Below, in pieces: positions 9,074 to 21,763 of a stretch of DNA of 64,000 nucleotides. The DNA comes from a virus. The stretch spans positions 41,619 through 105,618 of the IMG/VR virus record IMGVR_UViG_3300035698_010625. One strand, written 5' to 3'. The notes beneath the pieces were generated by a model, which searched no databases, was not told where the DNA came from, and saw only the letters and a program-made list of their open reading frames with translations. The translations under genes and the position numbers were made by a program. How positions within the stretch are numbered: the first letter of the stretch is position 1; each line of letters opens with the position of its first letter.

Positions 9074-9258
9074 AGCTACTTGATTGGAGGAAAGGAAACG
9101 GTAATTACTGCTTCTGATTACTTCAATATCGAATTTAAGTGTAATGCGAAACGAGCTCGCCGGGACACTCTAAAATCCTAAAAGGGGCGGAACCGAGGAT
9201 GGCGTATTTTTACAATACTCAAAAATCCGGATTTCAACAATAATAAGTTTTCATTGGT

Positions 9259-9333
9259 GTGGCCGTGGCCGAATGGTTTAGGTGCCTGACTGTGAATCAG
9301 ATTATATGGGTTCAATTCCCATCGGTCACCCCA
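9259..9333 (+). tRNA. tRNA-His(GTG)
   Basis: Cloverleaf, loop CT-GTG-AA, C73, CCA; no encoded G-1. Confidence 0.93.
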
Positions 9334-9348
9334 ATGAAAATTTACAAT

Positions 9349-9425
9349 GCCCTTCTAGCTAAACTGGACAAGGCCCTCGGCTACGAACTGAGAGATTGAA
9401 GGTTCGAATCCTTCGGAGGGTACCA
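9349..9425 (+). tRNA. tRNA-Arg(ACG)
   Basis: Cloverleaf, CT-ACG-AA, TTCGAAT, CCA. Confidence 0.93.
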
Positions 9426-9441
9426 TATTAAGGAGTTTGTT

Positions 9442-9600
9442 ATGAGTAAATGGGATTACCCCAAGACTAAGAAGAATTCTGATGGAGCAAAACTGACTGC
9501 TGCTGAATTACGCGCACAAAGAAAAGCTCATCGGAAAGCAATTAAAGCTACTGCTCATACTGAACTCAAGACGAAGAAAAATAAAGATCAAATTAAGTAA
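9442..9600 (+). CDS. Small Lys-rich protein
   Basis: AAGGAG RBS; MSKWDYPKTKK... Confidence 0.55.
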   Translation: MSKWDYPKTKKNSDGAKLTAAELRAQRKAHRKAIKATAHTELKTKKNKDQIK

Positions 9601-9605
9601 CAATT

Positions 9606-9682
9606 GGGTGCTTCGTATAACGGCACATTATGTCGGACTCTTAATCCGAACGATCTGGGTTCGAATCCCAGGGTACCCACCA
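9606..9682 (+). tRNA. tRNA-Lys(CTT)
   Basis: TCGGA-CT-CTT-AA-TCCGA, CCA. Confidence 0.92.
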
Positions 9683-9697
9683 AACAAAGGTATTATT

Positions 9698-9970
9698 ATG
9701 GAATTCACTGCTGAACTTGCTAAACAAATAGTTGAAGAAGATCATGATGATTGGGAACAAGTTAATGAAGAATCTTCTAATTCTTCCCGATGGCATACTC
9801 ATTACAGTGGTGTTTATAAAAATACATTAACTGGAAAATACTATGAATTTATTTGGCAGCGTGGTTCTACTGAATATCAAGATGAAGGTACAGAATTTTA
9901 CACTGACCCAATAGAAGCTGTAGAAGTTATTGAAAAATCAGTAACTGTAATGCGCTGGGTTGCTGTTTAG
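9698..9970 (+). CDS. Conserved phage hypothetical protein
   Basis: SRWHTHYSGVYK...G.TEYQD motif; true ATG lies after the tRNA. Confidence 0.7.
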   Translation: MEFTAELAKQIVEEDHDDWEQVNEESSNSSRWHTHYSGVYKNTLTGKYYEFIWQRGSTEYQDEGTEFYTDPIEAVEVIEKSVTVMRWVAV

Positions 9971-10065
9971 TTTGTACGCGGACGGTACTGCTTGGCAGTC
10001 CACTTGAATATCTTGTGGGTCACTGCACAGTCCGGGTTGAAGAACCTTAAACTTAACTAACAATT

Positions 10066-10141
10066 GCCGGTGAAGCAATCAGGGTATTGCAACTCGTTGT
10101 CTGCGAGAGATAGGAGGGTTCGAGTCCCTTCATCGGCGCCA
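10066..10141 (+). tRNA. tRNA-Asp(GTC)
   Basis: Loop TT-GTC-TG, G73, CCA. Confidence 0.85.
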
Positions 10142-10147
10142 ATTTTT

Positions 10148-10223
10148 GGGGGATTAGCTCATCTGGGAGAGCGTCTGTTTTGCAAGCAGAAGGTGATCGG
10201 TTCGAGTCCGATATCTTCCACCA
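10148..10223 (+). tRNA. tRNA-Ala(TGC)
   Basis: G3:U70 pair, TT-TGC-AA, CCA. Confidence 0.95.
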
Positions 10224-10258
10224 TTTTACTAGAAAGATTCATATACTTTCTAGACATT

Positions 10259-10336
10259 CGTTCGGTAGCTCAGCCTGGTTAGAGCACCCGTCTGATACGC
10301 GGTAGGTCGAAGGTTCAACTCCTTCTCGAACGACCA
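10259..10336 (+). tRNA. tRNA-Ile(GAT)
   Basis: CT-GAT-AC loop, canonical D and T arms, CCA. Confidence 0.88.
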
Positions 10337-10341
10337 ATTTA

Positions 10342-10446
10342 AAGAGCTTAGGTGTAGAAACGAGAATGCACCTTTAAGAAAACCTTGTTGCTGGGCTACC
10401 CGATAAATCATCTTCTCAGATGTATGCAACACAAACTTCAGCTCTT
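10342..10446 (+). ncRNA. Orphan structured RNA
   Basis: Closing stem AAGAGCT/AGCTCTT enclosing AGGTGTA/TGCACCT and branched TGTTGC/GCAACA stems. Confidence 0.5.
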
Positions 10447-10450
10447 CCTT

Positions 10451-10581
10451 TTGTACTGTCATGCGGGGTCGCCTCGGTGACGAAAGTGCTAGCGGGTACC
10501 GTCTTAGTAACGGTTTCACGAGGTGCAGGACCTCGGGGGTTTTCAGTTTCCACAATCGGGCTAGCTAAAACTGAAGTACAA
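10451..10581 (+). ncRNA. Orphan structured RNA with twin GCTAGC loops
   Basis: TTGTAC/GTACAA closing stem, long CGGGGTC-GCCTC-GTGA rod, TTCAGTTT/AAACTGAA hairpin. Confidence 0.55.
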
Positions 10582-10593
10582 TTTTATTACAAT

Positions 10594-10670
10594 GCTACGT
10601 TCGTCTAATGGACTAGGACTCTGGGTTTTCACTTCAGATAATATCGGTTCGAATCCGATACGTAGTACCA
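10594..10670 (+). tRNA. tRNA-Glu(TTC)
   Basis: Glu-type D arm TCGTCTAA...AGGAC, TT-TTC-AC, CCA. Confidence 0.9.
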
Positions 10671-10678
10671 ATTTCAAT

Positions 10679-10754
10679 TCCTAGTTAGTATTCTTGGTGA
10701 GCACGGGTGACTGTTAATCACTTCAGGTAGGTTCGAATCCTACACTAGGAGCCA
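10679..10754 (+). tRNA. tRNA-Asn(GTT)
   Basis: GGTGA-CT-GTT-AA-TCACT, G73, CCA. Confidence 0.92.
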
Positions 10755-10761
10755 AATCAAT

Positions 10762-10836
10762 GAGAGTTTAGTTCAAGTTAGAACATCTGGCGCAATAGTC
10801 AGAAGATGCTGGTATCGAATCCAGTCCCTTTCACCG
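10762..10836 (+). ncRNA. tRNA-like RNA with 8-nt non-canonical anticodon loop
   Basis: D arm GTTC/GAAC, TCTGG-CGCAATAG-TCAGA, T-like arm GCTGG/CCAGT; weak acceptor, ends ACCG. Confidence 0.6.
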
Positions 10837-10842
10837 AATAAT

Positions 10843-10928
10843 GGATGTGATGTACCGGTGGTGGTATAGCGGGCTGTAACCCCGTGGCTCTTATGGGCGA
10901 GTAGGTTCGACTCCTTCCACATCCACCA
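10843..10928 (+). tRNA. tRNA-Tyr(GTA)
   Basis: CT-GTA-AC, long variable arm, CCA. Confidence 0.9.
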
Positions 10929-11016
10929 ATTTCGTTGGCAGTAAGGTCACGCATTGAGATTGACCTCCTAGTAATAGGTACCTGATGGGTAAATTAAAAA
11001 GTGCGATTTCAAATTC

Positions 11017-11094
11017 CGGTGATTAGCTCAGCCTGGTTAGAGCTCTCCGTTTGGGGCGGAGTTGCCAGAGGTTCGAATCCTCTATCACCGACCA
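11017..11094 (+). tRNA. tRNA-Pro(TGG)
   Basis: CTCCG-TT-TGG-GG-CGGAG, C1-G72, CCA. Confidence 0.95.
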
Positions 11095-11187
11095 ATAACT
11101 AATTATCTAATGTGCTTGCCGGCATATGCGGATGATTGCACGAACTTCTATTGATAACAAGCGGTAACTTGTAATCATAAGATGAGT

Positions 11188-11251
11188 TAATTAGTAGTTT
11201 AACGGTAGATCGCCTGGCTGGAAGATGCGGGTTCGAATCCTGTCTAATTAC
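11188..11251 (+). ncRNA. tRNA-like RNA with vestigial anticodon arm
   Basis: TAATTAG/CTAATTA acceptor, D loop AACGGT, GCGGG-TTCGAAT-CCTGT; about 10 nt in place of the anticodon arm; no CCA. Confidence 0.55.
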
Positions 11252-11267
11252 TTTCGTGATTTACAAC

Positions 11268-11342
11268 AGTTCCTTAACTCAGAGGCAGAGTATCGCTTTT
11301 ACACAGCGAAGGTCGAGATTTCGAAATTCTCAGGAACTACCA
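11268..11342 (+). tRNA. tRNA-Val(TAC)
   Basis: TCGCT-TT-TAC-AC-AGCGA, CCA. Confidence 0.9.
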
Positions 11343-11409
11343 GTAACTAATCAACAGCTCGATGGGAGTCTTGCTATTTGATTGCACAGCGTCTTACTCC
11401 CATAAGATT

Positions 11410-11478
11410 TATTGATAGTGTAATGGATGCACACTGGGGTTTAAACCTGGAAGTACGGTTCGATTCCGTGATTAATAA
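11410..11478 (+). ncRNA. Degenerate tRNA-like RNA with TTA at the anticodon position
   Basis: TATTGAT/ATTAATA acceptor, GTGT/GCAC D arm, CTGGG-GTTTAAA-CCTGG, TTCGATT T loop; no CCA. Confidence 0.5.
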
Positions 11479-11530
11479 CTTGGGCTGTGATTTACAAATC
11501 GCTTGAGCAACTGCTCGCGTACAATACAAT

Positions 11531-11618
11531 GGGAGTGTGGTGGAATTGGTATACACATTGGTCTTAGAAACCAACGACTGTAATGGTCACGCAGGTTCGA
11601 CTCCTGTCACTCCTACCA
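11531..11618 (+). tRNA. tRNA-Leu(TAG)
   Basis: Leu D arm GGTGGAATTGGTATACAC, CT-TAG-AA, variable arm, CCA. Confidence 0.95.
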
Positions 11619-11624
11619 ATCAAT

Positions 11625-11692
11625 GTTCGATTAGCATAATGCAATGCGGCAAGTACTTGTAGAAGAAAGCTCGAATCTTTCATCGAACTCCA
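11625..11692 (+). ncRNA. Anticodon-less tRNA mimic (68 nt, CCA end)
   Basis: GTTCGAT/ATCGAAC acceptor, GCAT/ATGC D arm, GCAAG-TA-CTTGT, GAAAG-CTCGAAT-CTTTC, T-CCA. Confidence 0.75.
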
Positions 11693-11701
11693 AATTTAAA
11701 C

Positions 11702-11775
11702 GCTCAATTAGTTCAATGGTAGAACAACGGCCCGGTAAGTCGTTAACGTAAGTTCGATTCTTACATTGAGCACCA
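11702..11775 (+). tRNA. tRNA-Thr(GGT), C33 variant
   Basis: ACGGC-CC-GGT-AA-GTCGT, CCA. Confidence 0.85.
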
Positions 11776-11781
11776 ATTAAT

Positions 11782-11858
11782 GCCCGGTTCGTCTAAATAT
11801 TAGGACCTCTGCCATATTTGAGCAGAAAATAAAAGTGAGATTCTTTTACCGGACACCA
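11782..11858 (+). ncRNA. tRNA mimic with 9-nt anticodon loop
   Basis: Glu-like D arm, TCTGC-CATATTTGA-GCAGA, AAAAG-TGAGATT-CTTTT, A-CCA. Confidence 0.7.
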
Positions 11859-11864
11859 AACAAT

Positions 11865-11937
11865 GCCAAGGTCGTCTAATAATCTAAGACCCTCTCGTGA
11901 TAGAGAGAAATGAGGTGTAAATCCCCCCGAGGCACCA
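11865..11937 (+). ncRNA. tRNA mimic with 6-nt anticodon loop
   Basis: Glu-like D arm, CTCTC-GTGATA-GAGAG, acceptor GCCAAGG/CCGAGGC, A-CCA. Confidence 0.65.
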
Positions 11938-11943
11938 AACAAT

Positions 11944-12019
11944 GCTGGAGTCGTCTAACGGCTAGGACTTTACATTCTCAGTGTAAACAATGCGAGTTCG
12001 AATCTCGTCTCCAGTACCA
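11944..12019 (+). tRNA. tRNA-Glu(CTC)
   Basis: TTACA-TT-CTC-AG-TGTAA, CCA. Confidence 0.9.
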
Positions 12020-12024
12020 AATCT

Positions 12025-12111
12025 GGATTGATCCGCTGGGTAGGCCGGCAGCACGGTTTGAACCCGTGGGTGACCGAAAGGTTAGGGGTTCGACTCCTCA
12101 TCTCTCCGCCA
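12025..12111 (+). tRNA. tRNA-Ser(TGA)
   Basis: CACGG-TT-TGA-AC-CCGTG, GAAA-capped variable arm, G73, CCA; acceptor mismatches at pairs 4-5. Confidence 0.82.
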
Positions 12112-12118
12112 ATTTTAT

Positions 12119-12194
12119 CCTTCGCTCGTCTAATGTTAAGACACCAAACCGTGGAGGTTTGGGGATAGAGGTTTGATTCCTTTGCTTAGGACCA
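12119..12194 (+). ncRNA. tRNA mimic with extended anticodon stem
   Basis: CCAAACC-GTGGA-GGTTTGG arm, AGAGG-TTTGATT-CCTTT, acceptor CCTTCGC/GCTTAGG, A-CCA. Confidence 0.68.
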
Positions 12195-12202
12195 ATTTTA
12201 AT

Positions 12203-12253
12203 GACTACTTCCTATACGTAGGTTAATAACTGAAAAGTTAAGAGTGGTCACCA
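12203..12253 (+). ncRNA. 51-nt mini-tRNA-like RNA
   Basis: 7-bp GACTACT/AGTGGTC + A + CCA; two tetraloop hairpins CCTA-TACG-TAGG and TAACT-GAAA-AGTTA. Confidence 0.6.
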
Positions 12254-12347
12254 AGTTATCCCACACTCATCGAATGGTACGGTAAACGTTAAGAAACGTT
12301 TCGTGGGGAGTTTATCAGAAAGCCGTGACAGATAGACAACTAACAAT

Positions 12348-12421
12348 AGCTGCATAGCATAGTGGTAATGCGGGGGTCTTTGAAACCTCTCAGTAAGGTT
12401 CGATTCCTTATGCGGCTGCCA
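12348..12421 (+). tRNA. tRNA-Gln(TTG)
   Basis: GGGGT-CT-TTG-AA-ACCTC, G73, CCA. Confidence 0.92.
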
Positions 12422-12425
12422 ATTT

Positions 12426-12497
12426 TGATGTGGATATAATCTATCCCTTGTGCGGGTGCCCCTAGTAATAGGTCAAGGCAGCAAACTGCTCACATCA
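12426..12497 (+). ncRNA. Orphan four-way-junction RNA
   Basis: TGATGTG/CACATCA closing stem; arms GATA/TATC, CTTG/CAAG (containing CCTA-GTAA-TAGG) and GCAG-CAAA-CTGC. Confidence 0.45.
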
Positions 12498-12507
12498 GAT
12501 TTAATAT

Positions 12508-12594
12508 GGAAGATTAACTAGACAGGGTTCTAGAGCTGTTTGCTAAACAGATGGTACCGCAAGGTATGAGTTTCGAATACTCAATTTTCCGCCA
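12508..12594 (+). tRNA. tRNA-Ser(GCT)
   Basis: TT-GCT-AA loop, GCAA-capped variable arm, G73, CCA. Confidence 0.88.
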
Positions 12595-12623
12595 AACATA
12601 AAGAAAAATTAAGTATTAACAAT

Positions 12624-12698
12624 GGGACTCAGGTGTAACTGGGTGCACGGCGGACTTTTAATCCGTAAGGACAGGGTTCAAGCCCTGGGGTCCCACCA
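12624..12698 (+). tRNA. tRNA-Lys(TTT)
   Basis: GCGGA-CT-TTT-AA-TCCGT, CCA. Confidence 0.92.
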
Positions 12699-12785
12699 AA
12701 TGTAAATGGAAATGCTTCGGCATTGTAAAACTCACCGAAAGGTTTCCACCCAAGTGTGGATATAAAGAAGTTCCGATTAGTCAAT

Positions 12786-12859
12786 GCGTCTAAGTACAAG
12801 GTGTATCCTCGGGTTTCCAACCCGTAGTGAGTGGGTTTCGATTACCCCTAGTCGCTCCA
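12786..12859 (+). tRNA. tRNA-Gly(TCC)
   Basis: CGGG-TT-TCC-AA-CCCG, GCG acceptor, U73, CCA; irregular D and T arms. Confidence 0.75.
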
Positions 12860-12864
12860 ACAAT

Positions 12865-12937
12865 AGTTATCTAGCTCAACTGGCAGAGCACTAGCTTCAT
12901 ACGTTAGGGAATCTCGGTTCAAATCCGAGGGTAACTA
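12865..12937 (+). tRNA. tRNA-Met/Ile2(CAT), elongator type
   Basis: CTAGC-TT-CAT-AC-GTTAG; CCA not encoded (ends CAA). Confidence 0.85.
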
Positions 12938-12943
12938 CAATCT

Positions 12944-12951
12944 TATAAATA
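12944..12951 (+). promoter_or_regulatory. T4-type late promoter
   Basis: TATAAATA upstream of the ORF at 12978. Confidence 0.7.
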
Positions 12952-12977
12952 CTCTTTTAATAAACGAGTATCAGAAA

Positions 12978-13232
12978 ATGCAAACTTTTAAAAGTTTCAC
13001 CGAAGGAAATGTCGTTAAATTTCCTAAGAAGAAAAAACAAACCCACGATGAAATTACTGGATTGCCAATTGATTCACGTCTTCCAGATACCCCAGACGAA
13101 TGGATGGTTGTATCAAAGGATGAGAGTGTAGCATATAGCACTTCACCAACTCGTCAAGAAGCACAGAAAAAACTTAAGACGTATATGATGAAGACAGGTA
13201 AGAGAGATCTTAAAGTCATCAAATTTGGCTAA
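12978..13232 (+). CDS. Putative internal head protein (capsid-targeting-like leader)
   Basis: MQTFKSFTE N-terminus; late promoter upstream. Confidence 0.6.
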   Translation: MQTFKSFTEGNVVKFPKKKKQTHDEITGLPIDSRLPDTPDEWMVVSKDESVAYSTSPTRQEAQKKLKTYMMKTGKRDLKVIKFG

Positions 13233-13238
13233 GATAAT

Positions 13239-13270
13239 CCTCGCCAAGAAGGTCTAAACCATATATAATG
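13239..13270 (+). promoter_or_regulatory. Sigma70-type promoter, copy 1
   Basis: TCGCCA-N17-TATAAT; 30/32 identical to 19805-19836. Confidence 0.7.
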
Positions 13271-13280
13271 ATATAACAAA

Positions 13281-13352
13281 GCGGGTATAGCTCAGTGGTA
13301 GAGCGGAACGTTGCCAACGTCCAGGTCGAGAGTTCGAATCTCTCTACCCGCT
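13281..13352 (+). tRNA. tRNA-Gly(GCC)
   Basis: GCGGGTA acceptor, TT-GCC-AA, U73; CCA not encoded. Confidence 0.92.
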
Positions 13353-13562
13353 CTAATTTAGGATTATATGATGAATTTGGGACTAACAAGTGATTGTGAG
13401 GCAGAAGCATATTTTGATAGCGCTGATACTTACATCAAACAATACAACGCTACTTATATGTTTGAGAATAGTTCTGCGAGAGTCCGAACTATCATTGCTG
13501 AATATTTTGCTAATCTAGATAATAAAACTATTTGGCTTTGGAAAACTAAGAGTGATTGAATC

Positions 13563-13781
13563 ATGCGCCTTATCATTTCGCGGACTAACAATGACAGCAC
13601 TTTGGACTTCGAAGTTCATGATGCACGTTGGGTTACTTTTAGTGATAAAATGAAAGCATTTGCTTGGACTCGTCCGGGTAATAAGCTTGGAATTTACTTC
13701 TCCGAGGAATATGTCAATCGCCGCTTTGTGAACATCTTTTGCATTAGCGCGCTTGAGAACATGCACTGGCAGGTTAAGTGA
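13563..13781 (+). CDS. Hypothetical protein
   Basis: ORF in a small coding block within the tRNA array. Confidence 0.5.
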   Translation: MRLIISRTNNDSTLDFEVHDARWVTFSDKMKAFAWTRPGNKLGIYFSEEYVNRRFVNIFCISALENMHWQVK

Positions 13782-13791
13782 GGATTACATT

Positions 13792-13983
13792 ATGTGGATT
13801 CGATTTGAAGAGAAACAACCCAAACAAGATAAAGACCTTTATTACTTCTTCGATGTAGTAGGTGTTCACTCAGGGCGCTATTACGGCGGTGATACATTTC
13901 AAGGCCGAAGAGGTTTTCTCAATGGTGACGTTACTCATTGGCAATATGATAAAGGGCAGGGAAAACCTGCTGAACCAAAATGA
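13792..13983 (+). CDS. DUF551-like small protein
   Basis: MWIRFEEKQP...VTHW.....P motif. Confidence 0.6.
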   Translation: MWIRFEEKQPKQDKDLYYFFDVVGVHSGRYYGGDTFQGRRGFLNGDVTHWQYDKGQGKPAEPK

Positions 13984-13988
13984 ATAAT

Positions 13989-14065
13989 GCAAGAGTGGCT
14001 CGACTGGTGAAGGCCGGCGTCTTATATGCGTCTATATGTGGGTTCGAATCCCGCCTCTTGTACCA
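13989..14065 (+). tRNA. tRNA-Ile(TAT)
   Basis: GGCGT-CT-TAT-AT-GCGTC, A73, CCA. Confidence 0.88.
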
Positions 14066-14073
14066 AAATATTT

Positions 14074-14150
14074 CAGGGTATAAGTCAGTCTGGTAGACAC
14101 CCCGGTTTGGAACTGGGAAGCCGTTGGTTCGAATCCAACTACCCTGACCA
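14074..14150 (+). tRNA. tRNA-Pro(TGG), second copy with A37
   Basis: CCCGG-TT-TGG-AA-CTGGG, C1-G72, CCA. Confidence 0.9.
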
Positions 14151-14167
14151 TTTAAAGAGAGTACATT

Positions 14168-14428
14168 ATGCTTACATTCAATATTAAAGATTTCTTTTGT
14201 TGGCATAGTATTCAAAAAGAAGAGTCATTTGAAGCTTTTCATGCAAGAGCAGAAGCACTGCATGAAACTTATCAACATTGGACTCCTGTAAATGAAATTG
14301 AAAGAACAAATAGAGCAGTATGTTTTGTATCTTTTATTAACAATCACCCAAAAATCGTAAATCCATATACTGGTAAAACAAAAAAACAATTTTCTTTAAC
14401 GGAATATCCTATATCTACCTTGTCTTAA
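14168..14428 (+). CDS. Hypothetical protein
   Basis: ORF with a GAGAG RBS. Confidence 0.5.
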   Translation: MLTFNIKDFFCWHSIQKEESFEAFHARAEALHETYQHWTPVNEIERTNRAVCFVSFINNHPKIVNPYTGKTKKQFSLTEYPISTLS

Positions 14429-14451
14429 AGGTTGTATAATGATTATTCAAT

Positions 14452-14527
14452 ACACGGTAAGCAATTATGGTTAATGCGCTGGCTTGAAGTCCCAGATAAC
14501 TAAGTTCGATTCTTAGACCGTGTACCA
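14452..14527 (+). tRNA. tRNA-Phe(GAA)
   Basis: CTGG-C-TT-GAA-GT-C-CCAG, CCA. Confidence 0.83.
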
Positions 14528-14550
14528 ATTTATTATGGAGTGACTGTGAT

Positions 14551-15252
14551 ATGTTTGCTGATTTTTGCACTGATCATTTCTCGACGAGTAACAATGCACA
14601 TTACAGAAATCCGCGAACTGTTGACCAAAATGTAATTGCTAATGAGACAATGCTATTTAGCGCATCTCCAGAATTTGCTACTGCAAATGGTGGCCCACTT
14701 ACTGCTTACTTTCTCTCCAAGCTTTTTGATGGTGGATTTGAAAGCATTGATACTCGAGGAATGCATTGGGTCATTGATACTCGCTCGCACATGCTGATGC
14801 CAGGTCAATTTCCTTCTATTCCAGGTTGGCATTGTGATGCTTGGGAGCGAGATCCAAAGACACAACAACCACTTTTATGGCAGCACCCACATGGTACCGC
14901 TATGCATTTTGTAATGACACTTGGTACTAATGATGATGGTGTATCACTTACAAAATTCATACTTCCTTTTGGTGTGCCGATTCGTGTATCTTACGATCCA
15001 TCCAAAGTTTGGGGTTCTGTAAACGAATCAATTGAACACCAAATTGAAGATCTCGTTATATCACCAGATAGAATTATTAGTGCGCCTTCAGGGACACTCA
15101 TTTCGTTTGGACAAAACATATTACATACGGCTAGTGTAGCTACCAGTAAAGGCTGGCGCTTCTTTGCTCGTATAAGTTTAATGACAAATCCACCACTCAA
15201 CAAAATTCGAAAACAGGTACAAGTTTACGCTGATTCAAATGTTGGTTGGTAA
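14551..15252 (+). CDS. 2OG-Fe(II) oxygenase-like protein
   Basis: PGWHCD (HxD), distal LH and R.F.R motifs. Confidence 0.7.
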   Translation: MFADFCTDHFSTSNNAHYRNPRTVDQNVIANETMLFSASPEFATANGGPLTAYFLSKLFDGGFESIDTRGMHWVIDTRSHMLMPGQFPSIPGWHCDAWERDPKTQQPLLWQHPHGTAMHFVMTLGTNDDGVSLTKFILPFGVPIRVSYDPSKVWGSVNESIEHQIEDLVISPDRIISAPSGTLISFGQNILHTASVATSKGWRFFARISLMTNPPLNKIRKQVQVYADSNVGW

Positions 15253-15338
15253 ATGAATTAAGGGAAACGTTGGTTCGAGTCCAACTCCTGCGCTGGTGCA
15301 AAGGATCGTAATTGATGGCCAAGACACCCTTACGTTAC
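15249..15338 (+). ncRNA. Circularly permuted tRNA-like RNA (YrlA/Y-RNA-like architecture)
   Basis: Order T arm (GTTGG-TTCGAGT-CCAAC), loop-closed acceptor, D-like arm, all closed by TAAGGG/CCCTTA. Confidence 0.6.
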
Positions 15339-15341
15339 AAT

Positions 15342-15415
15342 GTTGATATGGCAGAATGGTTATGCCGTGGCTTGCAAACCCACTTACTCTGGTTCGATTC
15401 CGGATATCAACTCCA
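15342..15415 (+). tRNA. tRNA-Cys(GCA)
   Basis: TT-GCA-AA, U73, CCA. Confidence 0.92.
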
Positions 15416-15667
15416 AGATAAGGCTTTAGCCGCAGCAGAGTAGTCAGGCATGACATAAAAGGTCGAAATGAAAAAGTTTAGCCGGCTCGACCAGCTTTAT
15501 TTCTGAGTTCAAAGGTGGTCCTGAGCACGATGGATATGCACCAATTGTAAAAAATGTCTGTGATGGTGATTATACCGAATTCTCAGTTTGTTTGGAATGT
15601 GGTACTCTGAAAGGTACTTTCCCGGTTGATGATCCTGTTTGGAATGATGAAGAAGAAGATTAACAAT

Positions 15668-15737
15668 GCGCCGCGCTCTGGGTAAGCAGTATGGTTTCCA
15701 ATGCCTCGCGTGTGGAGTTCGATTCTCTGGCGGCGTG
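15668..15737 (+). ncRNA. Degenerate tRNA-Gly(TCC)-like RNA
   Basis: GCGCCGC/GCGGCGT acceptor, TGGAG-TTCGATT-CTCTG, TT-TCC-AA in a poorly paired arm; no CCA. Confidence 0.5.
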
Positions 15738-15762
15738 CACCTGTAATAGATTAAAGAATAAT

Positions 15763-15838
15763 AAGAGTATAGTATAATGGCTCATTACCCCGGGCTCTGA
15801 ACTCGGTAATCTAGGTTCGAATCCTAGTACTCTTGCCA
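15763..15838 (+). tRNA. tRNA-Gln(CTG)
   Basis: CCGGG-CT-CTG-AA-CTCGG, G73, CCA. Confidence 0.93.
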
Positions 15839-15845
15839 AATATAC

Positions 15846-15920
15846 GCCTGCTAAGCATTAATGGTGATGCACTGGTTTTGTAATCCAGAGAAGAGGGATC
15901 GTTACCTTCAGTCGGCACCA
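15846..15920 (+). tRNA. tRNA-Thr(TGT)
   Basis: TT-TGT-AA, CCA; atypical T loop ATCGTTA. Confidence 0.83.
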
Positions 15921-15923
15921 AAT

Positions 15924-15997
15924 CGCGAGATGTTGAAATGGCATCCTGCTGGGCTCATAACCCTTCGTTGGCGGTTCAACTCCGTCTTTCGCTACCA
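15924..15997 (+). tRNA. Initiator tRNA-fMet(CAT)
   Basis: C1:U72 mismatch, GGG/CCC in the anticodon stem, CT-CAT-AA, CCA. Confidence 0.87.
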
Positions 15998-16110
15998 ACT
16001 TTGTGAGATCGTCAAGTGTAATTATGTTAAAGCCCGAGATGATGACATTACAAAATGTACGAATCGGTTAATCTTTAACTAGCACAAGGGACATCTCACA
16101 AACTTTTTTA

Positions 16111-16251
16111 TGTTGTAACTGCAAGGATAATGCAGGGTGGTTGGAGAGCTTGTGAGGGTGTACAACCTTTTATCCACAGGTATAAAGTTAGCTTTAACAA
16201 ATCGAGGCGCTTTATAAATCTCTAGTGAAGTTCGATTCTTCATTACAACAC
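16111..16251 (+). ncRNA. tRNA-like RNA with ~85-nt branched domain replacing the anticodon arm
   Basis: TGTTGTAA/TTACAACA acceptor, TGCA-AGGATAA-TGCA arm, TGAAG-TTCGATT-CTTCA T arm. Confidence 0.62.
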
Positions 16252-16258
16252 TTTCAAT

Positions 16259-16346
16259 GGGAGTATGGTGGAATTGGTATACACAGCAGACTTAAAATCT
16301 GCCGCCTGTAATGGGCTCGGGGGTTCGAATCCCTCTACTCCTACCA
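16259..16346 (+). tRNA. tRNA-Leu(TAA)
   Basis: GCAGA-CT-TAA-AA-TCTGC, Leu D arm, CCA. Confidence 0.95.
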
Positions 16347-16786
16347 AATTAAGGTAAATATGATGCAGGAAACAAGCACTAAAACTATAGCAGATAAAGA
16401 AGCATTGATTCTGTCTGCTGGTGAATGTTATCCAGATACATCTAGTTTTATACGAGATGAAGTTGTGAAAGACATTAATTTTAAGCTAGTTGATAAGATG
16501 TGGGGCAAATAACGAGTGTTGCTCATGCTCCAACCTTCATATACAATGGTGAATGTAAACCTTGTGTAAGTAGGTTGTACCGTAGCTATTTGAGATACAC
16601 TTATATAACTGCTGCACACATTAATGCACTGGTGTATGACATGGTAGTGGAATTAGATGATTTACTTATAGATGCTTCTGAATTTCACCCATATATGATG
16701 GCGATACCACAATTAGCTGAAGAAGAATATATTGAATTTAATCGAATTGCATTCAAACTTCGATTTGCATTTTAAAGATTAACAAT

Positions 16787-16856
16787 GCCCCGGGTGTTGG
16801 ATACACAGCAGAGGTTTCTACCCTCAGCCTTCTGGGTTCGACTCCTAGTCGGGGTA
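16787..16856 (+). tRNA. tRNA-Arg(TCT) with shortened D arm
   Basis: GAGG-TT-TCT-AC-CCTC, GCCCCGG/TCGGGGT acceptor, canonical T arm. Confidence 0.72.
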
Positions 16857-16874
16857 CACCATTTAAGGTTCATT

Positions 16875-17153
16875 ATGAAATATCTTCTTGAGTTGTATTG
16901 GATGTGGAGGGACCGCCAAAGAGCAGAAGCTGAACTCGATAAATTCATAGCTGTTAAAAAGTGGGATGCTAGCATTCGTTGGAATAATGACAAATCGGTT
17001 GAAAACATTCTTTATATTGGTCTTGAAAATGGCCGTGGTGAACGTAAAATACAAATTCATGATTATGGATTAACCCGTACTTATTCTAAGTCGAAGGCCC
17101 ATCTCATTTATACAAAGTACGTTTTGCCATGGCAGCATAAAATAAATGAATAA
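16875..17153 (+). CDS. Hypothetical protein
   Basis: ATG after the tRNA with an AAGG RBS. Confidence 0.55.
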   Translation: MKYLLELYWMWRDRQRAEAELDKFIAVKKWDASIRWNNDKSVENILYIGLENGRGERKIQIHDYGLTRTYSKSKAHLIYTKYVLPWQHKINE

Positions 17154-17259
17154 TAACCTTTATCTTAAGGTCCTATATTGATATAATATACTTATTGGAA
17201 CGCACCTATTTTGCTGTCAACGCAATGTTGGCTTTTTTGTAATTAAACGGGGATACATT

Positions 17260-18084
17260 ATGATTACGCGAAACAAATTGGCTGTTGCTATTCTTGCTGC
17301 AGTTTCCATTACTACCGCAGCACACGCATCTGAAGTTACTACAATCACCGCTGGCTCCAAGGGCGGTGCATACGCTACTTATGGCAACAATCTTGCAACT
17401 ATGCTCACCCAGAATGATTGGAAGAGTAAGGTTATTCGCAGTAAGGGTTCAATTCAGAATATTGCCCGTCTTGTAGATGGCTCAGCACAAATTGGTTTCA
17501 CCCAGGGCGATGCTTTGCAGCTCTCAAAGGCTGGTGGTAAGATTGATATTCTTGGAGCACTTGGAATGGAATGTGCTTTCATTGTTTACAGTAAGAAGGG
17601 TAAGGTCACTGACGAAGATCATCTTCAGAATGAGGGTGTGAAAATTGCTGTTGGTAAGAAAGGTACTGGTTCACAAGCAACGTGGTCTTACATGGTTCAG
17701 CTAGAACCTGCATACGGTAATGCATCTGCACAGTATACTGGCGGAGCTCGCGCACTTGGCGCACTCAAAGCAGGCACTGTTGACGCTGTTCTCTTTGTCA
17801 CCGATCCCACTAATCTGAGTCATAAGCTTATTCAAGCAGTAAATGGTGATCCAGACCTCGATTTTCTAGACGTTGATGACAGTGACTTGAATGATGATCT
17901 ACCTAATGGCACGCCTGTCTATGAATTCAAAGAAGTTGACACTGAAACGGGTGCTTTCGCGGATGACGTAGATACTATCTGTACGCCTTTGCTAGTAATT
18001 GCTAGTGCAGATGCTGACGAAGACATGCTTGATGATGCTGCAGGAATTATGCTAAGCAATCGCAATGCGGTGCTTGGTAAGTAA
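17260..18084 (+). CDS. TAXI-family TRAP transporter solute-binding protein
   Basis: Signal peptide (AHA|S), G.KGGAY, SKGSIQNI..L..G.AQIGFTQGD, G..GTGS, ALKAGTVDA motifs. Confidence 0.85.
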   Translation: MITRNKLAVAILAAVSITTAAHASEVTTITAGSKGGAYATYGNNLATMLTQNDWKSKVIRSKGSIQNIARLVDGSAQIGFTQGDALQLSKAGGKIDILGALGMECAFIVYSKKGKVTDEDHLQNEGVKIAVGKKGTGSQATWSYMVQLEPAYGNASAQYTGGARALGALKAGTVDAVLFVTDPTNLSHKLIQAVNGDPDLDFLDVDDSDLNDDLPNGTPVYEFKEVDTETGAFADDVDTICTPLLVIASADADEDMLDDAAGIMLSNRNAVLGK

Positions 18085-18107
18085 CAATGCAAAAGATAGT
18101 CGTTCCC

Positions 18108-18305
18108 AAGTTAGTACTTAATCGCTCTACGGAGAGGAAAGTCGGGACAAGCGGCATGATCGTGTGGGAGGAGTTAACTCCGCTTTACCACCGTGACATA
18201 GCTTGCAACACAAACAGGATTAGACAAATTGTGCATCAATGATATCCGGGTTGTGGCCAATAGACGAATGATAGCATAGAACAGGATCCCGCTTACGGAT
18301 TACTT
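18108..18305 (+). ncRNA. rnpB: Miniature RNase P RNA (catalytic domain only)
   Basis: CR-I GAGGAAAGTCGGG (18134) pairs with CR-V ACAGGATCCCGCTTAC (18281) to form P4 with the bulged U; CR-IV-like AGACGAATGAT. Confidence 0.85.
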
Positions 18306-18594
18306 ACTACTTACAAGGAGCAAATGATGAGCAAGGTATACCCTCACTCAAGCACTAAGCAACGCGAACGATACGTGAAACAAAACGCTATTAAAGGCGA
18401 ACGCTCTATCGGGCAAACTGATGCTTCAGTAGGCTGGTATGGACTTACAGTAAATTGGAAAGCTATTGTGCGTGGTGCACCGTGTTACATTACAACTAAC
18501 TAAAAGGAGCAAGATATGCGCTTGATGAATTTAGAGCACCTCCTTAAATTGTGATTTTTGGTAAAACACTAATTCACACTTAAGGAAACATCTA

Positions 18595-18972
18595 ATGAAA
18601 ATCACTTATCTCAAAATTAAAGTAAAGTCACTAGCAGCAGAGTCACGCATGATCCGCCAAGAGGAGTTGAAACTCAAACGTCGATACCAGGCGATTAAAC
18701 TGTTGGACAATCAGTATGACACTGCAGCAGAAGAGGGAGACATAAGGTCTACTCGTTTAGGTCTTTATGAACACCGTACAGATGATGTACGTCGAGAGTC
18801 GCGTGTAGCTAATATTGCTTACGGTCTACTTCGAGGAAGAGAGTATAGCAAAATTGAGCGAGGAGTTCGGGAGTTTAATCAACCGAAATGGACACGCGTT
18901 ACAAAGTTGATTGAGAAGTATTCAAACAGTGAGGAGCAGAAGGTTAAAGCTTTTCAACTGATTGAGCAGTAA
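18595..18972 (+). CDS. Conserved phage hypothetical protein
   Basis: LKIKVKSLAAESRMIR...R.ANIAYGLLRGREYSKIE motif common in large phages. Confidence 0.75.
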   Translation: MKITYLKIKVKSLAAESRMIRQEELKLKRRYQAIKLLDNQYDTAAEEGDIRSTRLGLYEHRTDDVRRESRVANIAYGLLRGREYSKIERGVREFNQPKWTRVTKLIEKYSNSEEQKVKAFQLIEQ

Positions 18973-18983
18973 ATATCATGACG

Positions 18984-19006
18984 GAGCGCTTCGGCGCTCT
19001 CGTTTT
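18984..19006 (+). terminator. UUCG hairpin terminator
   Basis: GAGCGC-TTCG-GCGCTC followed by T residues. Confidence 0.75.
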
Positions 19007-19075
19007 GGCTGACACGGTGACTACCTGGCTTTCAATCCAAAGGAGTTTAGGGTTCGATTCCCTTATCAGCCACCA
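19007..19075 (+). ncRNA. tRNA-like RNA with reduced D arm (TTC in loop)
   Basis: GGCTGA/TCAGCC acceptor, AGGG-TTCGATT-CCCT, A-CCA. Confidence 0.6.
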
Positions 19076-19220
19076 AATTTTAGGAGAGGCATTATGAGTA
19101 TATTTGCTTGGATTGTTTTTCCATTTTTATTCCCCGTGGTTGTCGCAATGTTTTGGGTGCTGACACATGTGGATCCATACACTGGTAAGGTTCATTGGAA
19201 TCTTACGTGGTAAACGATAT

Positions 19221-19510
19221 CATGTAGTAGTTTAAATGTTGGCATTATGAGGAAAGGTGAAGATTATTTGAAAGTAAAATTAAGTTAGTAGCAATTCTGT
19301 AGTGGTGATGTAACGAGACGTGTAGGTAAAAACGTGAGCCAAATGAAAGATTGGACAGGCATCATCATCGAGGGCGTTGCGAATTCTTCTTTTGAACCCT
19401 TTAATTAGTAACCTTTACTTACGTGTCACACGGAAAAACGCTAGGAACCCCCCCGCTTACGCGTCTCTTAATCCTGGATATCCACGGTTCAATACCGGGC
19501 TACATGGCCA
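19221..19510 (+). ncRNA. 290-nt ornate tRNA-like RNA with 194-nt D-loop insertion
   Basis: CATGTAG/CTACATG-G-CCA acceptor, split D arm, 27-nt anticodon loop, T arm, 13-bp long-range pairing 19315-19327/19455-19467. Confidence 0.75.
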
Positions 19511-19534
19511 ATTTCTTGAAACGGAGTTTATAAT

Positions 19535-19780
19535 ATGAATGATTATTTTAATGCGTTTATTATGATTTTGGTTATAGCGATAGTAACAAATGTTGGTTGG
19601 ATTATTAATTATGATGATCTTAAAACACTTCATGAAAAGGCGTTAAGTATTCATAAGATTGAAGTCATGCAACATAGACAAGCTATTTGTCGTAGTGCAA
19701 CAGCTGAACACGCAACTAATACTGCTACACTCTTCGAAGCAATCAATAAGCTCAATTCTGCTGCTAAGGCTGCAGAATAA
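19535..19780 (+). CDS. Small membrane-anchored protein
   Basis: N-terminal TM helix; GGAG RBS. Confidence 0.6.
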   Translation: MNDYFNAFIMILVIAIVTNVGWIINYDDLKTLHEKALSIHKIEVMQHRQAICRSATAEHATNTATLFEAINKLNSAAKAAE

Positions 19781-19804
19781 TTTACTTTAATGGCATAAGA
19801 TATA

Positions 19805-19836
19805 CCTTGCCAAGAAGGTCGAAACCATATATAATG
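19805..19836 (+). promoter_or_regulatory. Sigma70-type promoter, copy 2 (upstream of the large RNA)
   Basis: TTGCCA-N17-TATAAT. Confidence 0.75.
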
Positions 19837-19844
19837 GTACTATA

Positions 19845-20730
19845 ATCTGAACACAAACTAATAGATTGGGTCGCGTGGGATCCATAAGATAAGTAGCAGT
19901 AATGTTACGAAAGGCTATCTCATTTACGGATAGCGCCACTTTTATGAAGGTGGACATCTACGCAAGCCAAGCTCTTTACGGGTACCTCCGGGTGCTCTGG
20001 AAGATAAGTTGTGACCGACAAACACATCCAGGCCAACGGTGAGGATGATAGATTCCGCAAGAATCTCGGGTCAAGCAAAAGCAACGAACTTCAATGAGCA
20101 AAGGGTAGATTGAAAAGTTAAGCTTGCAGGTAAGGCTTTCAATCAATACGATAGGTGAAAGAAGATACAGCCTTCTGGAATCTAGAAATATTGCTAAGTA
20201 GCTCGCAAGGCGAAAGGTACGAGGTGGGTGGTATTTGGTAACTCAAAGGTTATTGAGCCACAGGCATTCGCTCATCTTAAAATGTAAATATGTAAACGGA
20301 ATAGGGGAATAGGTACACCCGCCCGGCCGCCAAAGCCAGGATCTGTTGGTTCGAATCCAACTTTCGTTATCAACTTTGTATTGATAACAAATCTTAAATG
20401 CAAAGACGAATGCCACCGTGAAGTGGAAATTGCTTAATCCTCAAACCCATAGGGTAATTGAGGTTCAGGATGCTCGCAAGGCGGATTGAATTAGTTGGAG
20501 TCACAGGTAAATTCTTAGCGGAGTTACACAGCCCAGCAAGGCTGACCGGTCGATGAATGCTGAAAAGCTCGCGGATAGAGGAATCGCTACCTCTTTAAAC
20601 AAAGCAGCAATGGTTGATTACTATGCCGCTCTTCGGAGGGTAAAGTGGAAAAGAGAAGAACCTAGCGGATCGCACCGTGTGGATAATTTCTCGAAGGATC
20701 AACTGCATATGAGTATATTCTCAACTCATC
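19845..20730 (+). ncRNA. GOLLD-like large ncRNA
   Basis: About 890 nt with no credible ORF; many GCAA/GTAA/TTCG tetraloop stems; motifs recalled from GOLLD (GGTCGCG near the 5' end, GCTCGCAAGGC twice, AAATGCAAAGACG, CTTAAT, GCCCAGCAAGGCTG, GTGGAAAAG, terminal TATTCTCA hairpin); lies in a phage tRNA cluster. Confidence 0.75.
20295..20369 (+). ncRNA. tRNA-like element (CCA/Trp-like loop) embedded in the GOLLD-like RNA
   Basis: AACGGAA/TTTCGTT acceptor, GGG/CCC D stem, CCCGGC-CGCCAAA-GCCAGG, GTTGG-TTCGAAT-CCAAC. Confidence 0.7.
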
Positions 20731-20939
20731 TGTTTACTTATGGCAGGTTGTACGTTCTCTGCCTTAAACGTACTGGCTTTCTGGGGAGGCTCAGATAACC
20801 GGGTAGTTCACCTAACTACCTGCCATAAGTAAATAGGAAGATAATATGAACATTGATAAAGTTGAACTTCAGAAGATCTTTCTTGAAGTTTTTACTAAAC
20901 ACCCAGAAGCTGCAAAGATTTTTCTAAAGGGTAATAACT

Positions 20940-21239
20940 ATGAGCACGACCCCTACAAGAAGTTTGAGAGTTGAAAGATCATATACAAATAAGTTTAACC
21001 AAGTAATTGAAGTTGGTGATGAAGTAGTATTTGTTGCAACTTCTTGGGGTGGTACTGATATTCGCCAAGGTGTTTATCTTGGATATTACCCACGCACTGG
21101 TTGGGATGGTCGCCCTGCACTTCATGCTGCTAGTGTATCATACATTGGTAAGGAGTGGGATGGAAGAAAATGGATTGACGATGCAGTACTTCATTCTGTT
21201 CTTGAACTCGGTCGTGTTTTCAAAATTGAGAAAGTATAA
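20940..21239 (+). CDS. Hypothetical protein (paralog of 21239)
   Basis: N.FNQVIEVGDEV...R.GVY.GY...G.VFKI. Confidence 0.7.
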   Translation: MSTTPTRSLRVERSYTNKFNQVIEVGDEVVFVATSWGGTDIRQGVYLGYYPRTGWDGRPALHAASVSYIGKEWDGRKWIDDAVLHSVLELGRVFKIEKV

Positions 21240-21556
21240 TGGCATTCCTCGAAGAGTCATTTGTCAATGAAATCGGGCAACGTATTGAAGTTGGGGATCG
21301 TGTAATAGCGGTCGCACATGGATACAATCTCAACTGCCGTCCTGGTATCTATGAAGGTTATCACAGTCATGGCGAACAATATTATACTATCTCACAACTT
21401 GTAGAAACTGCAGATGGTGGGTTTAAGAAAGATGAACGTGGTAATTATGTGAGATATACGAAAAAACATTATTACATTCGAATGTTACATCGCGTATTGT
21501 ACGATGAAGGTTGGCGTGGAATACTTCAGAATGGTAACATTTTCAAAATTGCATAA
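21239..21556 (+). CDS. Hypothetical protein (paralog of 20940)
   Basis: NEIGQRIEVGDRV...RPGIYEGY...GNIFKI. Confidence 0.7.
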   Translation: MAFLEESFVNEIGQRIEVGDRVIAVAHGYNLNCRPGIYEGYHSHGEQYYTISQLVETADGGFKKDERGNYVRYTKKHYYIRMLHRVLYDEGWRGILQNGNIFKIA

Positions 21557-21560
21557 CAAT

Positions 21561-21650
21561 GGCATTGTGGTGGAACTAAGGTATACACAGCGTCTTCAAA
21601 AGCCGCCGGTCTTTGAGACTATGAGGGTTCGACTCCCTCCGATGCTACCA
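21561..21650 (+). tRNA. tRNA-Leu(CAA)
   Basis: Leu D arm, TT-CAA-AA, variable arm, CCA. Confidence 0.9.
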
Positions 21651-21763
21651 AGTTTAGGTTAACGAGTAACAGGCTTATAAGAAGTCGCGGTTCTTAGGTT
21701 CCTCTCCATACTGTTAATTTGGAGGAAAAGTTACTCACTCACACTATACAAAGGATCTTTATT

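Follow-up and report, generated by a model that had tools for sequence, protein, structure and literature searches.

What does a phage do with tRNA-shaped RNAs that cannot decode? The question is raised by positions 9259–21650 of the window analyzed here (the whole stretch of 64,000 nt, from IMG/VR record IMGVR_UViG_3300035698_010625), where genes for ordinary tRNAs are interspersed with genes for tRNA look-alikes, an RNase P RNA and a GOLLD RNA. The record is a virus contig of 105.6 kb, 59% complete by CheckV; because genes for a family B DNA polymerase (polB), UvsX, a DnaB-type (gp41-type) helicase and PhoH lie 3′ of the island, the phage, which is uncultured, is T4-like, and 9259–21650 represents its "tRNA region" in enlarged form. 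We lean towards reading it as a maturation-equipped RNA island that would release maintained tRNA look-alikes, with decoys as their most likely role.

ARAGORN called 29 tRNAs, all on the + strand and within 9259–21650, with none elsewhere in the 105.6-kb record, and Rfam added four tRNA matches to this set. A covariance model built from 21 island tRNAs (R1), run with filters off over 8800–22200, retrieved 12 further full-length, + strand tRNA-like matches, scoring between 43.7 bits (E 4.5e-10) and 13.7 bits (E 0.047), and also picked up isolated T-arm fragments; since a control search with R1 of both strands outside this region (50.6 kb of the window) was free of full-length matches, these 12 elements are far above chance. 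The extra elements were segmented by hand and their stem pairs were counted by script. By this segmentation, 33 elements carry a 7-nt anticodon loop and cover all 20 amino acids, tryptophan solely via a cloverleaf with G33 inside the GOLLD RNA, and 13 tRNA-shaped elements are non-standard, four of them probable decoders and nine non-decoders. A sequence-only reading of this DNA had described one block of RNA genes on the + strand, with 31 canonical-looking tRNAs and about 13 non-standard ones viewed as a non-decoding family. The block, its strand, the near-complete tRNA set and the number 13 are borne out, while the canonical count becomes 33 and about four of the supposed mimics are probably ordinary decoding tRNAs missed by the finders; the other nine cannot decode.

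These nine elements form three classes, A (six, elbow-less), B (two) and C (one):

10762–10836, + strand: class A; 8-nt anticodon loop, 8-nt T loop, no D-loop GG, ends ACCG; R1 20.2 bits, Rfam tRNA 28.9 bits; 19/21 pairs
11625–11692, + strand: class A; four helices intact, 4-nt anticodon loop, ends UCCA; R1 43.7 bits, E 4.5e-10; 20/20 pairs
11782–11858, + strand: class A, Glu-type; 9-nt anticodon loop, T loop UGAGAUU, ends ACCA; R1 34.4 bits; 20/21 pairs
11865–11937, + strand: class A, Glu-type; ACAAU leader, 6-nt anticodon loop, T loop UGUAAAU, ends ACCA; R1 14.5 bits; 17/20 pairs
12119–12194, + strand: class A, Glu-type; 7-bp anticodon stem, 5-nt loop, T loop UUUGAUU, ends ACCA; R1 36.3 bits; 21/23 pairs
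19007–19075, + strand: class A, 69 nt; 3-bp anticodon stem, 8-nt loop CUUUCAAU, D loop GACU, ends ACCA; R1 28.0 bits; 16/18 pairs
11188–11250, + strand: class B; 7-bp acceptor stem, D arm with GG, canonical T arm, no anticodon arm, no CCA; Rfam 37.3 bits, R1 28.4 bits
15668–15739, + strand: class B; ACAAU leader, 7-bp acceptor stem, D-loop GG, canonical T arm, malformed anticodon region, no CCA; R1 13.7 bits
16112–16249, + strand: class C; 138-nt tRNA-scaffolded RNA with a 7-bp acceptor-like stem, a canonical T arm and an insert of ~90 nt, no CCA; z -3.06 against shuffles

The six class A elements fold as cloverleaves, with 113 of 123 stem positions paired (92%), and five of them end in NCCA. 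Their anticodon loops measure 8, 4, 9, 6, 5 and 8 nt, and none is a 7-nt loop with U33. The GG of the D loop is present in 0/6 of them versus 28/28 checked elements with a 7-nt anticodon loop, and the T loop is altered in four of the six; class A thus lacks the elbow contacts (G18G19 with U55C56), both of which are kept in the class B elements at 11188 and 15668. With the Rfam tRNA model (RF00005, gathering score 29 bits), 11188 is the only one of the nine to pass, 10762 falls just short, and the other look-alikes gave no match at E values up to 1. The high proportion of paired stem positions and the discrete classes indicate that the look-alikes are not products of random decay.

Look-alikes and tRNAs share a processing layout. 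A U precedes the first base (position -1) in 35 of 42 elements (background 28%), the triplet directly 5′ is AAU, frequently within ACAAU, in 23 of 42 (background 3%), and 34 of 42 terminate in an encoded CCA; among the non-decoders the corresponding figures are 9/9 for the U and 5/9 for AAU. In the dense runs, spacers are of 3–9 nt and are the same whether the neighbor is a tRNA or a look-alike. This supports the earlier notion of a single RNA module, as all members lie on the same strand with 3–9 nt spacers, the leader and CCA are common to the non-decoders, and the RNase P RNA keeps the matching parts. We are confident that the region is a one-strand, promoter-driven RNA island with its own maturation layout. 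Other structured or regulatory features within it are as follows:

11095–11187, + strand: unassigned structured spacer with two hairpins; z -2.71
13230–13273, + strand: sigma-70-like promoter TCGCCA-17-TATAAT before tRNA-Gly (repeat family D18)
15265–15285, + strand: T arm standing alone, with 95% identity to the T arm of tRNA-Pro copy 2 (repeat search); R1 14.4 bits over model positions 45–65 only
18110–18311, + strand: RNase P RNA, catalytic domain only, 202 nt; RF00010 38.3 bits, E 4.4e-9
18983–19000, + strand: intrinsic terminator-like hairpin with UUCG loop and U tract, 3′ of the open reading frame (ORF) at 18595–18972; z -4.79 (18973–19006)
19422–19510, + strand: weak remnant like a tRNA 3′ half, ends GCCA; R1 9.1 bits, E 0.76
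19796–19839, + strand: sigma-70-like promoter TTGCCA-17-TATAAT (11/12, the best match of the region), a duplicate of 13230–13273
19842–20220, + strand: putative variable 5′ half of the GOLLD transcript, ORF-free, from promoter to Rfam match; z -1.77
20221–20727, + strand: GOLLD RNA, conserved part; RF02032 151.6 bits (cut-off 150), E 1.8e-40
20295–20372, + strand: tRNA-Trp(CCA)-like cloverleaf inside GOLLD, with G33 and no CCA (ARAGORN, R1), the only Trp-type element in the record
20728–20845, + strand: 118-nt branched RNA closed by a perfect 19-bp stem, between GOLLD and the next ORF; z -5.44, with 0/200 shuffles folding as well

The two promoter sequences are 89% identical over 44 nt, and in the second, whose -35/-10 match spans 19807–19835, sequence and position suggest a probable GOLLD promoter. 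A separate observation concerns the CCA end: a CCA-adding-enzyme-like gene (PolyA_pol domain, 96.8 bits; G000:C1:4786–5124) lies 37 kb upstream of the window, although most tRNA genes of this phage already encode CCA.

The RNase P RNA at 18110–18311, which the sequence-only reading had also recognized, matches bacterial class A RNase P RNA from one end to the other in the Rfam alignment. Like that RNA (RF00010; E. coli M1 RNA), it has CR-I GAGGAAAGUC, CR-IV AGACGAAUG and CR-V ACAGGAUCCCGCUUA, a P4 helix with bulged U, the order P1–P3 and the L15 GGU that binds CCA. It differs from the class A RNAs (~370 nt) in its 202 nt, in being encoded by a phage between two ORFs and in lacking the specificity domain (P7–P14), with ~140 model positions replaced by a stub of ~52 nt. 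The nearest parallels for such a loss are the archaeal type T RNase P RNA of Pyrobaculum and engineered catalytic-domain constructs. RNase P recognizes its substrates through two domains: the acceptor stem, the -1 base and the RCCA end are read by the catalytic domain, the elbow formed by the T and D loops by the specificity domain; the layout of the island, with U at -1 and CCA, therefore fits such a half-enzyme. Since the RNA sits between two ORFs, it would need excision from an mRNA. The upstream ORF (17260–18084), which ends 25 nt 5′ of the RNase P RNA, encodes a secreted NMT1_3/TAXI-like solute-binding protein (Pfam E 1e-18).

Relatives of this mini RNase P RNA were sought with a pattern of two P4 strands at short spacing, which retrieved 10 large phage contigs; nine are scored as RNase P by Rfam, with lengths of 190–220 nt, and the tenth was matched by blastn. 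Two of these phage copies pass the RF00010 cut-off (L007, 118.5 bits; L010, 106.8 bits), and all the Rfam-scored copies are within or beside tRNA genes, two of them near a transfer-messenger RNA (tmRNA). An alignment of ten sequences, the window copy plus those of nine P4-pattern contigs, recovered P4 with its bulged U, with covariation at one position (AU in six, GC in two and CG in two), and the L15 GGU in nine of the ten copies; because this MAFFT alignment recovered only P4, the other helices rest on the Rfam alignment. No gene for RnpA, the RNase P protein, was found in the 105 kb of this 59% complete record. The earlier reading had treated phage RNase P RNAs as known, which was not borne out: no publication on a phage-encoded RNase P RNA was found in the literature searched, to which the mini RNase P is new.

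The GOLLD-like RNA was likewise recovered, with a match that spans model positions 1–416 of 416 and lies in the usual context of a tRNA array with an enclosed tRNA-like element. Its transcript probably starts near 19842 and would include a variable 5′ half, of which the fold is not clearly distinct from shuffles. GOLLD lies 1.9 kb downstream of the mini RNase P RNA, and the same order, mini RNase P and then GOLLD, is found in another phage array (locus L008). Two papers place GOLLD in phage-derived tRNA arrays, namely in Lactobacillales prophages and mycobacterial tRNA arrays (PMC6582537; PMC9569102 citing PMC7549688), so GOLLD with an enclosed tRNA is already described in phage arrays. Like the described RNAs, the island GOLLD encloses a tRNA-like cloverleaf and sits among tRNA genes; unlike them, it barely passes the cut-off, its cloverleaf, with G33, is the only Trp-type tRNA of the phage, and a mini RNase P RNA is located 1.9 kb upstream.

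Folding of the 15 unassigned gaps against shuffles left only 3–4 that fold better, fewer than the "at least 6 orphan structured RNAs" first proposed: 11095–11187, 16112–16253 (the class C RNA), 20728–20845 and the terminator. Nine of the 15 were no better than shuffles (z -0.5 to -1.6). The stem of 20728–20845 may be an RNase III-type processing site, with no counterpart at the GOLLD of locus L008, and 11095–11187 had no homolog by blastn. A 290-nt "ornate tRNA-scaffolded RNA" at 19221–19510 was discarded (z -0.09), as its 7-nt acceptor match occurs by chance ~0.3 times per 290 nt.

Are the look-alikes then maintained, or are they debris? The three Glu-type elements (11782, 11865 and 12119) form a tandem series with tRNA-Glu(CUC), 79–83 nt apart, and have its D arm in common, and UCGUCUAA, in the 5′ half of this arm, is invariant across an alignment of the trio with the two real tRNA-Glu. 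Such a tandem arrangement is what would be left by dead tRNA genes, recent duplicates (especially of tRNA-Glu) that drift without function, and the acceptor mismatches, the non-canonical T loops, the certainly dead fragments nearby (15265–15285 and 19422–19510) and the fast turnover of phage tRNA arrays also agree with this origin. However, the acceptor and anticodon stems of the Glu-aligned set differ at most positions and are still complementary, a pattern that is suggestive of maintenance, although not decisive; stem pairing in class A has stayed at the level given above though loops and tertiary-contact bases have changed; length changes affect the anticodon loop of all six members and not the stems; and CCA and the U(-1)/AAU leader are retained. 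Additionally, the split between elements with GG and a 7-nt loop and those with no GG and an odd loop is all-or-none, contrary to the expectation from graded decay, and the lone T arm at 15265–15285, a true dead-tRNA remnant, is unlike class A in appearance. We consider decay unlikely. A different proposal is that the look-alikes are processing punctuation, substrates for RNase P or 3′ trimming that free the neighboring tRNAs, with the released RNAs being inert. E. coli RNase P separates polycistronic tRNA precursors, and the look-alikes stand within tight runs (Glu-Asn-10762-Tyr and Leu-11625-Thr-11782-11865-Glu-Ser-12119) with spacers and leaders as those of real tRNAs; likewise, the parts that they keep (acceptor stem, T stem, U(-1) and CCA) are those that RNase P reads, whereas the lost anticodon loop and elbow are irrelevant to cleavage by a catalytic domain alone. 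This role seems quite unlikely nonetheless, because deleting a dead copy would do equally well and other island tRNAs directly abut, and it leaves unexplained the invariant half of the Glu-type D arm and the perfect 7-bp replacement of the anticodon stem in 12119.

It is highly improbable that the odd-loop elements are unusual working adaptors, either frameshift or quadruplet readers or carriers of amino acids for non-ribosomal use. Loops of 8–9 nt occur in three of them (10762, 11782 and 19007), the Glu-type D arm is conserved, and the loss of D-loop GG and of T-loop UUC recalls the non-ribosomal tRNA-Gly of staphylococci; however, with the weak exception of 19007, no expanded loop has U33 and a purine 3′ of the anticodon in register for reading, the 4–6 nt loops of three others cannot decode, a 1-nt change in an A5 run, and not a four-base codon, accounts for the only broken ORF of the island, and there is no recoding in the genome. 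We conclude that the look-alikes are probably maintained functional RNAs, as judged from their sequences. Several observations weigh against this conclusion and the broader scheme built on it. The argument for maintenance rests on few paralogs and on a hand alignment fitted to the cloverleaf; three class A members have only 5/7 acceptor pairs, with two mismatches each; several look-alikes have degenerate T loops, as in young pseudogenes; the 19007 element begins within the U tract of the terminator; CCA is absent from two look-alikes and from the 138-nt RNA; and the mini RNase P RNA, at 38.3 bits, is well below the RF00010 curated cut-off of 100. Likewise, searches of the 105 kb of the record (59% complete) found no peptidyl-tRNA hydrolase and no T4-type RNA ligase, although for the ligase the search (RNA_lig_T4_1, PF09511) gave no match in any control genome either and so says little.

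If the look-alikes are maintained, the following route could account for the island. RNase P of the host and the ribozyme of the phage would both cut long precursors at the U(-1) sites; the ribozyme, because its elbow-docking module is missing, would read only the acceptor stem, the -1 base and CCA. The non-decoders would thereby be released as stable, CCA-ended small RNAs, comparable to rnaC and rnaD of phage T4 or RNA1 and RNA2 of phage T5. In the weakest step of the scheme, the look-alikes would tie up proteins directed at tRNAs, for instance defence nucleases of the host or acceptor-modifying toxins. As their loops are of 4–9 nt and elbow contacts are absent, they could serve only as decoys and not as replacements, and we put the decoy role forward tentatively, as a possibility that is more doubtful than maintenance itself. 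It is improbable that ribozyme and look-alikes form a matched pair, with an enzyme without elbow-docking domain and six CCA-ended substrates without elbow or anticodon loop; the phage enzyme would then mature RNAs that are poor substrates for the host enzyme, providing a private route to decoys against host proteins by which the ends or anticodon arms of tRNAs are attacked or sensed. The sequence gives no hint of any particular defence system as target and, because RnpA, peptidyl-tRNA hydrolase and T4-type RNA ligase were not found in the 105 kb, the record has no other sign of a tRNA conflict; the idea that the island is linked to peptidyl-tRNA hydrolase or RNA-repair genes was accordingly dropped.

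Genes for non-decoding RNAs on the same strand as a phage tRNA cluster are a classical feature of T4 and T5, where the products are stable RNAs, and the island has such genes as well. In T4, rnaC ("species 1", 139 nt) and rnaD ("species 2", 119 nt) are stable non-tRNA RNAs that adjoin the tRNA genes on the same strand, and rnaC, with a canonical T arm at its end and a terminal helix around a large insert, has the size and design of 16112–16249. Conversely, T4 has two such RNAs beside eight tRNAs versus about nine beside 33 here, mostly cloverleaf-sized and with an encoded CCA; rnaC and rnaD have no sequence similarity to the island RNAs and gave no R1 match in 1.16 Mb of loci that included the T4 locus (L087). 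In T5, six stable RNAs (RNA1, RNA2, RNAI, RNAIII, RNAIV and RNA2H) lie amid tRNA genes, small ORFs and early promoters, RNA1 and RNA2 being annotated as "tRNA-like stable RNA with unknown functions", and the block also includes an initiator tRNA, as the island includes an initiator-like one. T5 belongs to an unrelated phage family, however, and its RNAs are of 103–172 nt versus 63–77 nt for the cloverleaf look-alikes; no annotation of RNase P RNA or GOLLD was found in the 3.6-kb stretch of the T5 tRNA region examined. Compared with T4 and T5, the island thus shows the same feature enlarged and more diversified.

Phage tRNAs are known to evade or neutralize tRNA-cutting defences (PMC10264068, PMC11555353). 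Like the T5-type anticodon-loop variants described in those works, the look-alikes are phage-encoded, tRNA-shaped and altered in the anticodon loop; unlike these variants, which carry point changes and continue to decode as working tRNAs, the look-alikes have loops of 4–9 nt and no elbow contacts. If they prove to be processed and functional, non-decoding RNAs would join the ways in which phage tRNA genes counter tRNA-directed defences. The unusually large set of putatively stable tRNA-like RNAs (about nine beside 33 tRNAs), with its clear design classes, lends itself to concrete constructs, and the island brings side by side a catalytic-domain-only phage RNase P, substrates that fit it in layout (U at -1, encoded CCA) and a GOLLD RNA. 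An active ribozyme would be a natural minimal RNase P.

No close relatives of the island were found. Blastn with 17000–21700 gave no match among 50,697 phage records, peptide patterns from three window proteins gave none in IMG/VR, and the duplicated promoter sequence was not present in JGI metagenome contigs. The best homolog of the ORF at 14551–15252 among 5.8 billion proteins was 48% identical, and a profile search returned 65 loci, all with ≤46% identity over the best aligned segment (≤44% where the match spans most of the protein); blastn of the island RNAs against these 65 loci gave no match. The junction pattern (CCA, leader and Glu-type D arm) retrieved 13 other arrays, none of them close. 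By an approximate count with a cut-off of ~24 bits, the share of tRNA-like R1 matches left uncalled by ARAGORN was ~24% in the island versus ~7–8% in 23 other phage arrays, in which a few anticodon-less, CCA-ended elements are present too.

Within the island, the ORF at 14551–15252 encodes a protein of 233 aa (phrog_1843) with no Pfam match; GWHCD, H192 and R203/R207 are invariant in 24 homologs, in apparent resemblance to the triad that binds the metal in 2-oxoglutarate/Fe(II) oxygenases. The gap 15416–15667 contains a 65-residue ORF (15467–15664) with two CxxC pairs and a one-base shift in an A5 run right after the ATG, a break that could reflect an assembly error, transcriptional slippage or a pseudogene; a programmed four-base codon was discarded, since the break amounts to one base in the A5 run. 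There was no sign of stop-codon reassignment in the record, as the long ORFs are the same under TAA, TAG or TGA read-through, and stop-codon recoding was for that reason rejected as an explanation for the UUA tRNA, a potential reader of TAA. A CCUAGUAAUAGGU hairpin with a GNRA-type loop is repeated in two otherwise unassigned spacers (10966–10980 and 12460–12473), in each case within a long-range stem. It is possibly a small recurrent RNA motif; both spacers fold no better than shuffled sequences.

The ordinary and probable decoding tRNAs of the island are listed below (called by ARAGORN and matched by R1 unless stated otherwise):

9259–9333, +: tRNA-His(GUG); R1 60.8 bits
9349–9425, +: tRNA-Arg(ACG), ACAAU leader
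9606–9682, +: tRNA-Lys(CUU)
10066–10141, +: tRNA-Asp(GUC)
10148–10223, +: tRNA-Ala(UGC)
10259–10336, +: tRNA-Ile(GAU)
10594–10670, +: tRNA-Glu(UUC)
10679–10754, +: tRNA-Asn(GUU)
10843–10928, +: tRNA-Tyr(GUA)
11017–11094, +: tRNA-Pro(UGG) copy 1
11268–11342, +: tRNA-Val(UAC)
11410–11481, +: cloverleaf with anticodon UUA, ochre-suppressor-like, without CCA; ARAGORN; 22/22 pairs
11531–11618, +: tRNA-Leu(UAG)
11702–11775, +: tRNA-Thr(GGU)
11944–12019, +: tRNA-Glu(CUC)
12025–12111, +: tRNA-Ser(UGA); ARAGORN
12348–12421, +: tRNA-Gln(UUG)
12508–12594, +: probable tRNA-Ser(GCU), long variable arm, loop UUGCUAA; R1 27.9 bits; 20/21 pairs; missed by ARAGORN
12624–12698, +: tRNA-Lys(UUU)
12786–12859, +: probable tRNA-Gly(UCC), loop UUUCCAA; R1 26.4 bits; missed by ARAGORN
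12865–12938, +: tRNA-Met/Ile2(CAU), without encoded CCA
13281–13353, +: tRNA-Gly(GCC), without encoded CCA
13989–14065, +: tRNA-Ile(UAU)
14074–14150, +: tRNA-Pro(UGG) copy 2
14452–14527, +: tRNA-Phe(GAA)
15342–15415, +: tRNA-Cys(GCA)
15763–15838, +: tRNA-Gln(CUG)
15846–15920, +: probable tRNA-Thr(UGU), odd T loop AUCGUUA; Rfam 36.5 bits, R1 42.3 bits
15924–15997, +: initiator-like tRNA(CAU); Rfam 34 bits, R1 29.2 bits
16259–16346, +: tRNA-Leu(UAA)
16787–16861, +: tRNA-Arg(UCU), non-standard, with no 8–9 linker, a 7-bp anticodon stem and tail ACACCA; ARAGORN, R1 20.7 bits
21561–21650, +: tRNA-Leu(CAA)

Four of them, Ser(GCU), Gly(UCC), Thr(UGU) and the initiator-like CAU element, are probably working tRNAs missed by standard finders; we read them as usable because a 7-nt loop with U33 and the GG of the D loop are present. 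The predicted Ser(GCU) gene is an 85% match to a tRNA of another phage array (L091), and the initiator-like element has GGG/CCC in the anticodon stem and a C1xU72 mismatch, with a poor D stem. Unusual T loops seem to be common in phage tRNAs, since a further array (L100:5859–6894) holds several genes missed by ARAGORN, of Asp, Thr and Phe types, with normal anticodon loops and non-canonical T loops. Another departure from the standard form is found in two of the mini-RNase-P arrays (L008:1711–1813 and L005:2339–2441), where a hairpin of ~27 nt is inserted just 3′ of anticodon-loop position 37 in tRNA-Gly(GCC)-like and tRNA-Thr(UGU)-like genes; its excision would restore a canonical 7-nt loop, and it could be either an intron-like insert or a block to decoding.

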